DNA from: a virus
Lineage: Duplodnaviria; Caudoviricetes
IMG/VR virus record: IMGVR_UViG_3300050159_000048
DNA: 64,000 bases
Reading direction: 5' to 3' (one strand)
The notes beneath the pieces are model-generated. The model searched no databases, was not told the DNA's origin, and was given only the letters and a program-made list of their open reading frames with translations. A program made the position numbers and the translations under genes. Positions 4,208-11,161 of this stretch are shown one piece after another. Within the stretch, counting starts at the first letter, position 1; every line of letters starts with the position of its first letter.

Positions 4208-4812
4208 ACCTTGCAACCCCACTGCAGTTGTTCACTGAGCATGACCGTGCTCAGATTCTCGACCACCTGTTGCGGCTGTCTGTGACGGACCGGTATCTGC
4301 GATTCTGCTCACCCCTGAGCGATGATGCGATTCGTGCGTACGTTAATAGGCTGGATCTTACCGGCAAAGATCACGTATTTGCCATTCGTGATGACCAGCT
4401 AAAAATCGTCGCCCTCTTGCACGCTGCCCCAAGCTCTGAGGATAGTGTTGAGTTTGCACTATCCGTTGACGAAGACAAGCGTAAGGAAGGACTGGGCGAT
4501 AAGTTGTTTGAGCGTGGACTGCAGTGGTGTGAAACACACGGCGTGAAGCGCATTTACATGCAATGCCTAGCCACAAACAACGCTATTAAGGCGATGGCTC
4601 GCAAGCGCGACATGAAGATCACCACTGATTATGGGGAAAGCGTTGCCGAACTTGCTGGAGTAGAGGATCATAACGTTCTTTCCGCTTGGCTTGCTGCAGC
4701 TCGCAGCGACGCAATCGGCCTGTTTGACCTACGGTGTAAGTTCGTTCGGCACCAGTGGGAAGAATATGTTGATCATATTGCGGGAGTGTTGAAGGGTAAA
4801 ACGACCCGTTGA
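4195..4812 (+). CDS. GNAT acetyltransferase
   Basis: RYLRF, EFALSVDEDKRKEGLG (acetyl-CoA motif A), CLATNNA. Confidence 0.8.
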   Translation: MRSLNLATPLQLFTEHDRAQILDHLLRLSVTDRYLRFCSPLSDDAIRAYVNRLDLTGKDHVFAIRDDQLKIVALLHAAPSSEDSVEFALSVDEDKRKEGLGDKLFERGLQWCETHGVKRIYMQCLATNNAIKAMARKRDMKITTDYGESVAELAGVEDHNVLSAWLAAARSDAIGLFDLRCKFVRHQWEEYVDHIAGVLKGKTTR

Positions 4813-4859
4813 CATTTCAAATCTTACATGAGATAGTTGACGCAAGATTGATAAATACA

Positions 4860-5048
4860 GTCTCTGTCCTGCAAATGACAGAGTGGTGGTGCCCGATGAC
4901 TTTAGGAAACTAAGGCCAGCCCCAAAACTTGACGGCACGTAGATGCGTAAACGATCAGGATTCGCCGTCCTTGTCCTGATGTCGGATGAAGCCGTTGGTA
5001 GGCGTAGTAGCCCCAACTAACAAAAGGTGAACACGTAACCGACAACCA
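4860..5048 (+). ncRNA. candidate structured ncRNA upstream of tRNA-Ala
   Basis: no convincing ORF; follows TAAATA 4852-4857; inverted repeats ATCAGGA/TCCTGAT, GACGGC/GCCGTC, GTTGG/CCAAC. Confidence 0.3.
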
Positions 5049-5050
5049 AT

Positions 5051-5121
5051 GGGGGATTGATGTAATGGGAGCCTGGAAGCTTTGCAAGCTTTTCGTGAGA
5101 GTTCGATTCTCTCATCCTCCA
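5051..5121 (+). tRNA. tRNA-Ala (UGC)
   Basis: acceptor GGGGGAT/ATCCTCC with G3:U70 and A73; anticodon loop TTTGCAA; T-loop TTCGATT; CCA not encoded. Confidence 0.85.
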
Positions 5122-5129
5122 CAAAGTTT

Positions 5130-5515
5130 TACTGTGCGAAAGCACTGGGTTATCCGCGTGTTAGGTATCCTCAGTCAAGCGAGGCCGTACCACTCAAGCG
5201 GGGGTGCAATGGGTAAAGAACCAGCATCACCTAGACGGTGTTCCTTGACTTGACCGTTGGTAAAAGTTTAGACCATTAGCGTGGTTGCTGTTTAATCGCC
5301 AAAGTGGTGTACACATCATTACCGAAGTGTGTACAAATGACGGTTAAGCAGTCAGATTCGGTTCATTGTTCAGTGTTGAGTCTAGTACGTGCTCTTTAAT
5401 CAACACTTAAAGCGATCGCATAGAATGCAGGAATTGTTCACGTAAGACACCCCGTAGACCACTAGCGAAAGTCGTTTAGTCGATGATAACGGTGCAAGCC
5501 CGTAGAAACCCTACA
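5130..5515 (+). ncRNA. candidate large structured ncRNA (about 385 nt) between the tRNAs
   Basis: no plausible CDS; hairpins GTGC-GAAA-GCAC, GTACAC..GTGTAC, AGTGTTGA..TCAACACT, GTAG..CTAC. Confidence 0.4.
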
Positions 5516-5528
5516 TAAATAACACAAT

Positions 5529-5606
5529 CGGAGTGTAGCGCAGCCTGGTTAGCGCATCTGCTTTGGGAGCAGAGGGTCGTGAGTTCGAATCTCACCACTC
5601 CGACCA
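5529..5606 (+). tRNA. tRNA-Pro (UGG)
   Basis: full cloverleaf CGGAGTG/CACTCCG, anticodon loop TTTGGGA, TTCGAAT, encoded CCA; TAAATA at 5516-5521. Confidence 0.97.
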
Positions 5607-5678
5607 CTTATCATACCGTTGACGTATGATAATTTTCGAGCGATAATGAGGATATTGTCAATCAACCATCTCCTCACA

Positions 5679-6098
5679 ATGAAACATCTGCTCACATCTA
5701 TTTGCGCCTTAGCCCTGATCCTCACTGGGTGTAGCAAACAAGATGATCAGCCCTTCCACCCAACTAATCTAACTGAACTGCGCTTCCTAGAGCTTTGCAC
5801 TGGAGTATCCATTGTGTCGCGAGGCTCTCAAGACATCGCCTATGCCAATTGTCTTGGGCGCGTTCGTGGCTTCATTGATGGCCATGCAATGACGGTCGTT
5901 GCCAATCCTGATATCGAGCCGCTTTGGTGCGTTAACCAAATGCAGCCGGATATTGAGGTGTACAACGAAATCGTTGACTGGGTTGTCAAGAACCCTGTAA
6001 AATACAAATCCATTGCCGCTGCTGCGCCTCCCGCAACCGCATCAATGATGGTTGCAATTGCCGCAGCACACGAACGATTTCCGTGTAAGGATGAATGA
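5679..6098 (+). CDS. lipoprotein with Rap1a/Tai-like immunity domain
   Basis: lipobox MKHLLTSICALALILTG-C; L..C, CLGRVRGFID, WC, IVDWVVKNP and terminal FPC match the Rap1a pattern. Confidence 0.65.
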   Translation: MKHLLTSICALALILTGCSKQDDQPFHPTNLTELRFLELCTGVSIVSRGSQDIAYANCLGRVRGFIDGHAMTVVANPDIEPLWCVNQMQPDIEVYNEIVDWVVKNPVKYKSIAAAAPPATASMMVAIAAAHERFPCKDE

Positions 6099-6418
6099 TG
6101 ACACCGCCACGCCGCTTGATTGAAGATAAGACCGTTTACGTTGCCACCAGCCCGACGGACCGACTGATGATCACTGCCGCTTCGGAGATTGAGGCGAAGA
6201 TTGAGCTGCTGGATAAACTTGGCTACAAGATTGAGCAAGTTGAAGCATTCCTACTGCTGGACGCCGATTCTGGTGATATCATGGCAAAGCTGAGTGCCAC
6301 ATCACTGGAAACAGCGCTGGATGAAGTTCTATCTGCTGCAAAGTGGAGGATTTCAGAATCAATGGAGTTGCTCGGCGGCTCTCTCGGCGACGGCTTTGGT
6401 GATTTTGAAGACGAATAA
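6095..6418 (+). CDS. hypothetical protein
   Basis: 107-aa ORF with ATGA overlap. Confidence 0.6.
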   Translation: MMTPPRRLIEDKTVYVATSPTDRLMITAASEIEAKIELLDKLGYKIEQVEAFLLLDADSGDIMAKLSATSLETALDEVLSAAKWRISESMELLGGSLGDGFGDFEDE

Positions 6419-7028: not shown

Positions 7029-7279
7029 GAATTCGGGTGGAGATTGTTGATAGAATTTGGAAGGGTCTTCGGACCTGACGTCTCTGACGTCGCATCCTAA
7101 TTATATGCAACGGTCAATTGTGTGCAGCTTTGTAATCATAAAGCCCTTGTAACCATTGTTGGATACGAGCTGTACGATCAAGACCATTAATTGCTGGAAT
7201 GTTGGAATGCTGGAGTGTATTGCATCCTCTTTCTGTTGACTTTCTTCACCCCCTCAGCTTGACTCATAAGTAAAACAAT

Positions 7280-7846
7280 ATGTCACTATACGCAATTGCT
7301 GGCAGCCAAGGTACTGGAAAATCCACCCTACTAGCTGCTCTCAACGTCCTTCAAATCACCCGAAAAACCTCACGCTCCATTCTGTCTGAATGGGGCGTTT
7401 CCCTTTCCCAAGTCAATAACGACAGGACTCTCACCGTCAAGTTTCAGGACGAGATCCTGGCACGAAAAATTGTTGATGAGCGATGGGCTACCGAAACAGA
7501 TCAGATTGTGTTCACAGAACGCACATACGCGGACTTGTTCGTGTATGCTGTTGTAGCGCTCGGAAAGGATAACGAGTACAGCGAATGGCTGGATGAGTAC
7601 TACCTACGTTGTGTTGAAGCTCAACGAACATATTCAGGTGTGTTTTACCTGACGGGTGGCCATTTTCAGCCCGTATACGACGGCGTTCGGGCGGTGAATA
7701 AACACTATAGTCGAATGGTGGACTTGACAATGTACGAATATACGTGTAATATGTCACCAAGTGTAACCCCGATTCATGTCGCAGATCTGGACGAACGCGT
7801 TCATATTGTGATGGAAGCACTACATAATCGTCCACAATCAGAATAA
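7280..7846 (+). CDS. P-loop nucleotide kinase / AAA_28-like ATPase
   Basis: N-terminal GSQGTGKST Walker A; FTERTYAD resembles the NMP-kinase DR motif. Confidence 0.7.
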   Translation: MSLYAIAGSQGTGKSTLLAALNVLQITRKTSRSILSEWGVSLSQVNNDRTLTVKFQDEILARKIVDERWATETDQIVFTERTYADLFVYAVVALGKDNEYSEWLDEYYLRCVEAQRTYSGVFYLTGGHFQPVYDGVRAVNKHYSRMVDLTMYEYTCNMSPSVTPIHVADLDERVHIVMEALHNRPQSE

Positions 7847-7865
7847 CATACACACGGAGAAGTAA

Positions 7866-8933
7866 ATGACACAAGACAACAGCAAGTACCTGGGCGCGGT
7901 GAAAGGCCGCCGCTTTCGCTACAACGATTACACCCGCCACATGCCCCATCTAAAGTTTGAGTACGATGAGGATTACTACCCGGAAGACTCCGACCTGCCT
8001 GATCCACAAATTGATCCGTTCATTCCGGGTCTGCGCGTTCAGCTTGATAAGGTTGGCGTCAATGGCGTGCATCTACCGATCAAGTTCCTGCGTCGTGACG
8101 GCTCAGTTCAAGAGCTGCAAGCGGAAGCATCCCTGTACGGCTCGCTGGACAATCCGGACGCAAAGGGTCTGAACCTGTCGCGGTTCCCCATTGTCATGCA
8201 TGAAGAAATCGCCGGTCACTTGTCGATTGACGGCCTCAAGGGTGTGCTGAAGAAGCTGCAGTCAAAGCAAGGCAGCAACCATACGTATTGCAAGCTGCGC
8301 TTCAAGTATCCTTGGACACAAGAAGCTCTGCGTACTCGCCAAGAAATGAAGGTGGAAGAGTACGGTAGCGTTGAGCAACTGAAGGCACACAAGGACTTCT
8401 TCAAGGAAGTGGACGGTGTGTATCTCAGCCACAAGAAGGCACTCGGCCACATCTTCTATGATTGTGTATTGGAAGCGCAACAACACGGTGATGAGTACGC
8501 ATTCTTCCTCACCGTACACTACGTGTATTCGTCCACTTGCCCTTGCTCGTTTGAGCTGGCTCAGGATGCGACCCTGAAGCGTGGTCAAGCCGCTAACGGA
8601 CACAGTCAGCGCTCCATCGCAAAGATCACGGTTCAATTCAGCCCAGACAATGTGGTGTACATCGAAGACATCATCGAAATGGCACGCAAGCAGGTTCCTA
8701 CTGAGGTGGTGATCATTTGCAAGCGCCGCGATGAGCAGGCCTTCGCTGAATTGAATGGCTCCAATCTCTTGTTCACAGAAGACGCATCTCGTCTGATGTA
8801 TCAAGGGTTGGATGAAATGTACAACGCCGGCAAGATCAGCGACTTCAGTGTTGTCACCGAGCATGTGGAATCCTTGCATCCGTGGTCAGCCACAGCGGTG
8901 GTATCCAAGGGCATTGTGGGCGGCCTTCGGTAA
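7866..8933 (+). CDS. folE2: GTP cyclohydrolase I type IB (FolE2)
   Basis: LDKVGV, KGLNLSRF, STCPCS, HSQRS, LLFTEDASR, HVESLH. Confidence 0.9.
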   Translation: MTQDNSKYLGAVKGRRFRYNDYTRHMPHLKFEYDEDYYPEDSDLPDPQIDPFIPGLRVQLDKVGVNGVHLPIKFLRRDGSVQELQAEASLYGSLDNPDAKGLNLSRFPIVMHEEIAGHLSIDGLKGVLKKLQSKQGSNHTYCKLRFKYPWTQEALRTRQEMKVEEYGSVEQLKAHKDFFKEVDGVYLSHKKALGHIFYDCVLEAQQHGDEYAFFLTVHYVYSSTCPCSFELAQDATLKRGQAANGHSQRSIAKITVQFSPDNVVYIEDIIEMARKQVPTEVVIICKRRDEQAFAELNGSNLLFTEDASRLMYQGLDEMYNAGKISDFSVVTEHVESLHPWSATAVVSKGIVGGLR

Positions 8934-8954
8934 TCTGAATTCCTGAGTCCTAGG

Positions 8955-8982
8955 AAAAGAGCGGTCACTTGACCGCTCTTTT
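8955..8982. terminator. intrinsic terminator
   Basis: AAAAGAGCGGTC-ACTT-GACCGCTCTTTT. Confidence 0.85.
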
Positions 8983-9025
8983 CGTTTGGCAAACGATAAA
9001 TACAGCATTACACAGGAACTACCCA

Positions 9026-9628
9026 ATGAAATTGCTACGAGAACTCCTAACTGATGTCAAACGCCTTGATGATCCGTCGTCGGACATAGAAACAGATGAT
9101 TTGGATCAGTTGCTTGCTGATTACGAGCAGGGAGAGAGCGGTGTCCCGAATGAAGAGTCCCCAGAAGGTGATGATGAGCTAGACTTGGATCTAGGCGACG
9201 ACGTTCCGTCTGATGACGACAACATGGGGGTTGAATTTGATTCGTCCTCTCCGCCTAGCAGTGGAGAAGAGTCCCCAGAAGGTGATGATGAGCTAGACTT
9301 GGATCTAGGTGATGAAGGGCTGGGCGGTGATGAGGACATGGATCAGTTGGCGCAACAAGCTACAGAAGATCCTGATCGTGCTGGTGTGATTCGCACAGTG
9401 AAGAACTCACACTTGGTATACAAACGCCAAGCAGAAGATGGTACTTACGACGAACTGTGGGTATACAACGTCAAAGAGTTTGACCCCACTCTACAGGTCA
9501 AGAAGGCAATTCTAGCGGGGACAGACATTCCCCCTGGCAAGTTGCAGTCTGCTGATGGTAAGCAGACTTATACCTCATGGGCTTCAGGTAACGCAGAAAT
9601 GCTGTTGATCAAGGGGTTACCTAACTGA
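9026..9628 (+). CDS. acidic late protein (putative head protein)
   Basis: MKLLRELL start, TAAATA 8997-9002, D/E-rich N-terminal half. Confidence 0.6.
   Translation: MKLLRELLTDVKRLDDPSSDIETDDLDQLLADYEQGESGVPNEESPEGDDELDLDLGDDVPSDDDNMGVEFDSSSPPSSGEESPEGDDELDLDLGDEGLGGDEDMDQLAQQATEDPDRAGVIRTVKNSHLVYKRQAEDGTYDELWVYNVKEFDPTLQVKKAILAGTDIPPGKLQSADGKQTYTSWASGNAEMLLIKGLPN
9152..9309 (+). repeat. exact 44-bp direct repeat
   Basis: GAAGAGTCCCCAGAAGGTGATGATGAGCTAGACTTGGATCTAGG at 9152-9195 and 9266-9309. Confidence 0.95.
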
Positions 9629-10371: not shown

Positions 10372-11161
10372 CAACATCCATTAGGGTTTGCAGATAATAC
10401 AACACTTCCCAGATGTTAGGAACCAGGCGCTGCCTGTCGTATTCCATATATGGAGTGGAGAAGGCTTCAATCACCTTCTTCACTTCGGCTGCCTTGGAAT
10501 CATCATACCAATAGAACTTGACAATATCAAACTTGTCGCGTTCCCACCACTCCTTTAGTGCTCCAAGCCCCATTGGCTCAACGCCAATAAGCACGACGTT
10601 TTGAGGGGTGCCCTGTTCGTGTACCAAGTACATGACTTGCGTTCGAGCAATCTCTTTCTTTGCTTCTACGATAGCAGCTTGGCGGTTACCCAGCCAATAG
10701 CTCCAGCCCCGCCACTCTTTATACACCAAATCTGGTCGAGCGGGAAGATCGTCAGGCAGATTCCCTGGCATGCGAGCCCAAACCAGCCACTCGTTCATGG
10801 TCTGGAGCTTTAGTTTGTGCACGTACTGGATCGCCTCAATCATTGGGCGCCAAGAGATAGTTGACCGCTTGTTAAACTCGTTGTTTGTGCCTAAGAAGTC
10901 ATTCCAAGACACCCACTCCTTCGTGTATACACGGTACGGAAATTTGGGTATAGTTTTTGGCTTCTCACGCTCCCACCATTCCTGAAACTTACCGCGCGAC
11001 GGCAGCATTTGCTCCCGCATGAACGTACGAGCCTCATCCCACGGAAGGTAGTTCGTGTTGCGACGCCCTGATACCTTTGGTTTGGTCTTCTCTGCAATGC
11101 GAGCGTCGATTTCCTCGTCCGTCAACTCGTCTTCAGGCACGTACTTTGCTGTATCGTTCAT
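10310..11161 (-). CDS. protein with two Trp-rich repeat units (integrase-repeat type), putative DNA binding
   Basis: two copies of EA..........W......P..P...Y.EW..W..(F/W)LG. Confidence 0.5.
   Translation of the reverse strand: MNDTAKYVPEDELTDEEIDARIAEKTKPKVSGRRNTNYLPWDEARTFMREQMLPSRGKFQEWWEREKPKTIPKFPYRVYTKEWVSWNDFLGTNNEFNKRSTISWRPMIEAIQYVHKLKLQTMNEWLVWARMPGNLPDDLPARPDLVYKEWRGWSYWLGNRQAAIVEAKKEIARTQVMYLVHEQGTPQNVVLIGVEPMGLGALKEWWERDKFDIVKFYWYDDSKAAEVKKVIEAFSTPYMEYDRQRLVPNIWEVLYYLQTLMDVVTREQMIATPSRSTLELQRV

Follow-up and report, generated by a model that had tools for sequence, protein, structure and literature searches.

Since the 1970s, tRNA clusters of phages have been recognised as carriers of extra small stable RNAs, such as species 1 and 2 of phage T4, whose role was, to our knowledge, never explained. 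These two species, rnaC and rnaD, are non-tRNA sequences of 119-139 nt that lie on the tRNA strand, abut a tRNA gene (in the order tRNA-Arg, rnaD, rnaC) and are released by the tRNA-processing enzymes; segB, a GIY-YIG homing-endonuclease gene, is located inside the same cluster. Larger non-coding RNAs borne by phages near tRNA genes are represented by GOLLD (RF01998) and ROOL (RF03087), which are multidomain molecules of 400-800 nt. A further term of comparison is provided by the tRNA-like RNAs, i.e. tmRNA, YrlA/Y RNA and viral tRNA-like structures.

This study describes a spacer of modular composition between a tRNA-Ala and a tRNA-Pro gene, the 3' part of which is a conserved, autonomously folding and pseudoknotted RNA of about 145 nt, here called element C. 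The window, i.e. the whole stretch of DNA that was analysed (64,000 nt), comes from IMG/VR virus record IMGVR_UViG_3300050159_000048, which is 174.5 kb long and estimated to be ~50% complete; contigs identical to the window over positions 4700-5700 were present in several other samples. The region around the spacer displayed the following features:

4809-4837, plus strand: sigma-70-like promoter TTGACA-17-(TG)GATAGT (consensus scan, 10/12 matches, extended -10)
4862-4883, plus strand: hairpin A, with a stem of 7 bp, close to the transcript's 5' end (covariation)
4919-5043, plus strand: element B, a structured module upstream of tRNA-Ala (identity and compensatory pairs)
5051-5122, plus strand: tRNA-Ala(UGC) (ARAGORN; Rfam RF00005, 53 bits, two non-standard D-stem pairs)
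5123-5363, plus strand: element D, the lineage-specific 5' part of the spacer, with a GAAA hairpin at 5134-5145 and a long imperfect hairpin at about 5287-5352
5366-5510, plus strand: element C, the kissing-loop RNA (model R1, 157.5 bits; covariation; kissing-helix test)
5529-5606, plus strand: tRNA-Pro(UGG) (ARAGORN; Rfam RF00005, 68 bits)
5608-5636, plus strand: terminator-like A/U-rich hairpin of 9 bp followed by TTTT (by eye)
5619-5647, plus strand: promoter-like site of the next gene (consensus scan), overlapping the terminator-like hairpin

Element C resembles rnaC and rnaD in size and in being a non-tRNA sequence that lies on the tRNA strand and abuts tRNA genes. The likeness did not extend to sequence: covariance model R1 of element C found nothing in the T4 tRNA region at E<=1 and scored at best 1.5 bits over rnaC/rnaD with filters off, the only weak local matches of its P5 part in T4 being tRNA T-arms. 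Moreover, rnaC has a canonical T-arm, whereas element C has a UGCAAGC loop and a kissing helix between P1 and P3. A 27-nt likeness between rnaD and the invariant block of element C (about 17/27 positions by eye) was within chance. GOLLD and ROOL share with element C their phage-borne, non-coding nature and their proximity to tRNA genes, yet its conserved unit is far shorter and matched neither model. Likewise, its P5 hairpin shares the T-loop pattern of the tRNA-like RNAs (4-5-bp stem and 7-nt loop), but the element has no acceptor stem, cloverleaf or CCA, and it was not matched by ARAGORN or by the Rfam tRNA, tmRNA and YrlA models. A short GAAAGUC motif may resemble CR-I of RNase P; RNase P models gave nothing over element C at E<=10 in the window or at E<=5 in five other copies, and the same was true of STnc100/PasD (RF02076) at the same thresholds.

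The spacer had previously been described, in a sequence-only reading of the window, as a candidate structured RNA of about 385 nt, possibly of a new class, lying between the two tRNA genes without any credible coding sequence. The latter point was confirmed, since the 406 nt between tRNA-Ala and tRNA-Pro contained only ORFs of 30-62 aa, the two longest of which start inside tRNA-Ala. The GAAA tetraloop noticed in that reading is likewise present, as GUGC-GAAA-GCAC at 5134-5145. The covariance-model search proposed there was carried out with Rfam 15 on the whole window at the gathering threshold and on positions 4700-5750 at E<=10; only the two tRNAs were credibly matched and no known family appeared in the spacer, so that the suggested link with GOLLD and ROOL was not borne out. 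Three matches from the 4700-5750 search were discarded as sub-threshold noise: tmRNA_permuted (RF04321), which rests on the T-arm of tRNA-Ala and has 15.9 bits where the gathering score is 47; ToxI, with E = 9.3; and a plastid UTR over tRNA-Pro. ARAGORN reported only the two tRNAs and no tmRNA. The tRNA-Ala gene has a divergent D-arm with two non-standard pairs and scored 53 bits; relatives display the canonical D-arm GCUCAG...GGGAGAGC, and the tRNA-Ala of locus L089 reached 60 bits.

Copies of element C were collected by pattern scans of viral, metagenome and genome collections followed by searches with R1. This provided 12 copies in 10 contigs, scoring 62-166 bits: the window copy (157.5 bits over the full model length), one each in L086, L089, L091, L092, L093, L095, L096, L097 and L098, and two in L102. 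In addition, L087 carries an element C identical in sequence to that of L086. All copies were recovered through exact patterns in the 3' block or through synteny, and the invariance of this block is therefore partly an effect of ascertainment. About a dozen large phages have the family in their tRNA gene clusters. The 77 other viral loci with tRNAs, which share the 3' end of the tRNA-Ala, showed neither an R1 match nor similarity to the spacer. In a blastn search in distant mode of 50,697 cultured-phage records with the whole region, the L091 element C, element D and the leader, only tRNA-Pro and one 26-nt chance match were found. A strict pattern run on 185,579 prokaryote species, each represented by one genome, yielded no true copy. 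Pattern hits in L094 and L100 (Anaerolineales) and L099 (Polyangiaceae) had no R1 score worth noting and were attributed to chance, as was the one in L103 (13.6 bits), which by eye seems to lie within an open reading frame. The region of the best tRNA-Pro match, in Agrobacterium phage Atu_ph07, has no element C. Rfam searches at E<=5 on five other loci also gave nothing over the element, and the family is absent from Rfam 15. We hold with high confidence that element C represents a conserved structured RNA family.

The fold of element C in the window comprises the following parts:

5372-5379/5400-5407, plus strand: P1, a hairpin of 8 bp closing a loop of about 20 nt
5416-5419 and 5421-5423 with 5462-5468, plus strand: P2, a long-range helix enclosing P3 (UCNC-A-UAG with CUA-GNGA)
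5427-5438/5446-5455, plus strand: P3 hairpin
5386-5391 (UACGUG) with 5439-5444 (CACGUA), plus strand: kissing helix between the P1 and P3 loops
5469-5485, plus strand: nearly invariant 17-nt unpaired block AAGUCGUUNAGUCGAUG, 3' of P2
5489-5492/5500-5503, plus strand: P5 hairpin of 4-5 bp, with loop UGCAAGC at 5493-5499

The covariation analysis with homologues that had been called for in the sequence-only reading was performed on element C. Compensatory changes on both sides were found in 25 of 30 pairs of alignment A5, where 93.8% of pair cells formed standard pairs against 63.8% after shuffling (none of 500 shuffles reached the observed value) and 35-43% when partners were slid by 1-3 columns; these pair counts are inflated, as the model structure guided the fitting of the alignment. 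Across copies, one pair of P2 takes the forms G-C, C-G, U-A and A-U, and another C-G and U-A. The kissing helix provided a test that does not depend on alignment. The loop of P1 can pair with that of P3 over 6-8 nt in seven unrelated sequence versions, including UGUUGG/CCAACA, GAUUAC/GUAAUC and UCGCGCAA with UUGCGUGA. Cognate loops had a mean energy of -10.3 kcal/mol versus -5.2 kcal/mol for non-cognate ones, and none of the 1854 derangements of the seven versions reached the cognate total (0/265 in a test with 10 copies). G.U pairs in the helices fit the plus strand only. Loop indels of 1-4 nt were found among copies, and element C is therefore unlikely to be protein-coding. The earlier proposal of a functional RNA of a new class was thus upheld for the ~145 nt at 5366-5510, on the tRNA strand and with covariation, and had to be abandoned for the 385-nt extent.

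Further covarying columns were searched for among the 12 sequences, as was a column that might pair with the variable N of GUUNAGUCG, and nothing exceeded noise. A possible second pseudoknot, between GCUCY in the P1 loop and RGAGC 3' of P2, can form in most copies, not all. The P5 loop UGCAAGC fits the T-loop pattern U-G-N-R-A and resembles a T-loop. The conserved blocks were no more complementary to the 16S, 23S and 5S rRNA of E. coli than shuffled blocks were; the best case, at the 5' end of 23S rRNA (-16.3 kcal/mol), was equalled by 31% of shuffles.

The genomic contexts of element C were diverse and had same-strand tRNA genes as their only constant. The element always lies on the tRNA strand; 10 of the 12 copies are at most 250 nt from a same-strand tRNA gene and seven abut one. 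It fits flush between tRNA-Ile(UAU) and tRNA-Asn in L093 and between tRNA-Leu(UAA) and tRNA-Asp in L102, directly follows tRNA-Leu(UAA) on its 3' side in L092 and L096, and directly precedes tRNA-Ala on its 5' side in L098. Outside the phage group of the window, no protein gene was found to recur beside it. L102, a 142-kb viral contig, carries two diverged copies (7247-7389 and 10980-11121, minus strand) with different kissing sequences, and in both of them P2 is UUGC/GCAA instead of UCGC/GCGA. In L095, ARAGORN predicted a 95-nt tRNA with a four-base anticodon (cgca) at 1110-1204 on the minus strand, directly upstream of element C (Rfam tRNA, 37 bits); it may be quadruplet-decoding or otherwise aberrant.

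The spacer is composite and element C is an RNA of a new family; we consider it likely that this RNA is co-transcribed with the tRNAs, released from their transcript and active in trans. The region would form an operon consisting of promoter, hairpin A, module B, tRNA-Ala, module D, module C, tRNA-Pro and terminator-like hairpin, to be transcribed by the host polymerase from the sigma-70-like promoter, with element C in the same transcript as the tRNAs. The spacer would be freed when RNase P cuts at tRNA-Pro and the 3' end of tRNA-Ala is matured; in the phage of the window, element C would either be left fused to D or be cut from it later. As a small RNA that persists after release, it would be active in trans, where the invariant single strand and the T-loop-like hairpin would bind a factor of tRNA or translation metabolism that the hosts of unrelated phages have in common. 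The near identity of the core in unrelated large phages points to a conserved binding partner. Release by tRNA processing followed by action in trans is, taken separately, the function that we are inclined to favour; any one particular partner deserves much less confidence. Element C adds a well-defined pseudoknotted family to the RNAs of phage tRNA clusters, and its 145 nt make up a defined construct in which the kissing helix can be tested and a single strand is invariant.

The constant association with tRNA transcription units would also agree with a role in cis, either as an aid to tRNA processing or folding that determines in which order or how efficiently the tRNAs mature, or as an attenuator or sensor controlling read-through into downstream tRNAs or genes. 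An ORF begins 15-60 nt downstream in about half of the copies (L086, L089, L095, L096 and L097), and in L097 a U-rich run follows P5. Yet neither the upstream tRNA nor the downstream neighbour is constant, the latter being tRNA-Pro, tRNA-Asn, tRNA-Asp, tRNA-Ala or an unrelated ORF, no alternative pairing of the expression-platform type was seen, and P5, with 4-5 bp, is too short for a good terminator. The invariant single-stranded core and the pseudoknotted fold are more typical of a binding RNA, and action in cis appears unlikely to us.

As to how a trans-acting element C might work, it could be a partial tRNA mimic that displays a T-loop or elbow surface and serves as decoy or adaptor for a conserved host tRNA factor; we put this forward as a doubtful proposal on which little weight should be placed. 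The UGCAA of the P5 loop is identical to the anticodon of the adjacent tRNA-Ala, UGC, together with the two bases that follow it. If the proposal were true, the decoy could be aimed at a defence nuclease that cleaves tRNAs, at an enzyme of tRNA processing or modification, or at a translation factor, and the tRNA array would carry its own RNA-based module for counter-defence or takeover.

The division of the spacer emerged from its relatives, which were reached from proteins homologous to the GNAT encoded upstream (53-66% identity) and from their contigs; searches for related loci with each of the two flanking proteins as single query gave none. The gene order macro-domain protein, GNAT, tRNA-Ala is kept in L086 (a 196-kb contig), L087 and L089. 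The only part of the spacer that matched these three loci corresponds to window positions 5366-5502 (74-80% identity), and the linker between tRNA-Ala and element C, 244 nt in the window, is there reduced to 70-88 nt that are unrelated or barely alignable. A further relative, L091, was found with the conserved 22-nt motif of element C. It is a locus of G001, a complete 350-kb jumbo phage genome with terminal repeats and about 51 tRNAs, in which tRNA-Ala (6070-6142), element C (6144-6290) and tRNA-Pro (6292-6366) form an uninterrupted series with the same neighbouring genes as in the window. In view of the relatives without D and of this compact cassette, the ancestral unit is tRNA-Ala, the ~145-nt element C and tRNA-Pro. 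The tRNA genes of G001 cluster near both genome ends and the cassette stands alone in mid-genome (184171-184466); it therefore appears to be a separate conserved unit.

The remaining 5' part of the spacer, element D, had no detectable homologue in the loci examined or among the phage records, and none in the closest relatives, whose linker is 70-88 nt long or absent; a single near-identical variant was available for comparison. Its fold is moderately better than that of shuffled sequence (z = -2.6 for the 5' 241 nt), and neither ARAGORN nor Rfam matched anything tRNA-like in it. Comparison with the relatives thus leads us to infer that D is a recent addition in the lineage of the window, without detectable conservation. 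In this phage, the entire spacer would probably come free as a single molecule during tRNA processing, but only its 3' third is under detectable selection. Long "empty" spacers between tRNA genes would be better viewed as chains of modules than as single large RNAs.

Some hints of expression came from RNA-library contigs of runs X1, X2, X3 and X5, which inform on the parts they cover. Short contigs located entirely within the spacer were present in two freshwater metatranscriptome libraries from different studies. A 184-nt contig identical to the window at 5270-5453 bridges the junction between D and C, and a 220-nt contig covers 5142-5361 with 6 substitutions; five of these affect predicted pairs, and three of the five replace G.U by a Watson-Crick pair. 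As these contigs are assembled, have a depth of about 3 and may derive from DNA, the junction-spanning one gives a weak hint of co-transcription of D and C, and the support lent to D by the other is weak as well.

That the spacer would leave tRNA processing as a single molecule, that D folds somewhat better than expected and that one RNA-library contig bridges D and C are the points in favour of the large RNA proposed in the sequence-only reading, i.e. one ornate molecule of ~385-406 nt resembling GOLLD or ROOL and closed by GGGTT/AACCC. Both words of this closing pair are present (5147-5151 and 5507-5511), where they would join element D to the tail of element C, but they do not pair with each other in the minimum-free-energy fold; GGGTT is located in the 5' 240 nt missing from the relatives and has no counterpart there. 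The fold of the whole spacer is not unusual (z = -1.4 on the plus strand and +0.2 on the minus strand against shuffled sequence). In relatives, only the 3' ~145 nt are retained, next to unrelated linkers or none, and element C is self-contained in five unrelated contexts. With no GOLLD, ROOL or other Rfam family matched and with the compact cassette of L091, which largely refutes it, we judge the single large RNA improbable, and a composite spacer with an autonomous element C remains the preferred reading.

A compact pseudoknotted fold, a nearly invariant unpaired core and ends flush against tRNAs could also befit a catalytic RNA, such as a small self-cleaving ribozyme, which would excise itself from tRNA arrays. 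No Rfam ribozyme was matched at E<=5-10, however, no cleavage-site signature was identified, and ~145 nt exceed the size of most small self-cleaving ribozymes. Self-cleavage is not needed either, because RNase P and tRNA 3' processing already set both ends, and catalysis by element C seems highly improbable. Finally, the chance that the spacer is non-functional filler, made of decayed tRNA genes or homing-endonuclease remnants, is practically negligible: it may hold for D, which has no homologue, and insertions do occur in the cassette (see L086 below), but it is excluded for element C by conservation across unrelated phages and covariation, and D contains no tRNA-like match.

In L086, three ORFs are found between element C and tRNA-Pro (7092-9096). 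One of them shows a weak likeness to the GIY-YIG endonuclease SegE, at 23.3 bits where the cut-off is 25, and a duplicate of the first ~51 nt of tRNA-Pro is located at 8534-8584, upstream of the intact gene (9018-9096). This arrangement looks like a homing-endonuclease insertion, comparable to that of segB in the T4 tRNA cluster. The SegE-like ORF and the tRNA-Pro duplicate therefore indicate that insertions happen in this cassette.

Upstream of tRNA-Ala, the putative promoter at 4809-4837 may serve the whole tRNA/RNA unit, as its position in related sequences suggests: an equivalent promoter-like site was noticed by eye in L091 (TTGATC-17-TATAGT), and TATACT aligns at the same position in L086 and L089. 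Hairpin A displayed stems CTCTGTC/GACAGAG in the window, TCCAGTC/GACTGGA in L089 and CTCTGTT/AACAGAG in L086 and L087, amounting to 4 compensatory pairs (alignment A1). It is followed by a conserved UGGUGG(A/U)GCC. In L091, an unrelated hairpin occupies the position of hairpin A, right after the sigma-70-like promoter.

Element B was 87% identical to L089 positions 1106-1227, despite only 54% identity of the neighbouring GNAT protein. One of its hairpins displayed three consecutive compensatory pairs (AUCAGGA/UCCUGAU in the window versus AUAGAGA/UCUCUAU in L089). The element was absent from L086, L087 and L091, and no match was found in phage records or viral contigs, including a viral scan with a B motif. 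Owing to this conservation and to the compensatory pairs, B is regarded as a second structured module, present in two phages only. A pseudoknot is suggested by its loop GCCGUC, for which a complementary GACGGC is present further upstream.

Downstream of tRNA-Pro, the hairpin at 5608-5636 is a candidate terminator by its sequence; it was not called by the consensus scan because its stem has too few G-C pairs. Contigs L080, L083 and L084 begin inside tRNA-Pro. L080 and L083 encode an identical downstream protein, of which L084 carries a 42%-identity relative. Because these assemblies break there, the sequence 5' of tRNA-Pro may vary among co-occurring strains, as the contig ends suggest. The downstream lipoprotein (window 5679-6098) gave a weak match to Rap1a immunity proteins (E = 0.0045, below cut-off), and a 42%-identity homologue of it has a precomputed PF18602 hit. 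The lipoprotein gene follows tRNA-Pro also in L084, L086 and L091.
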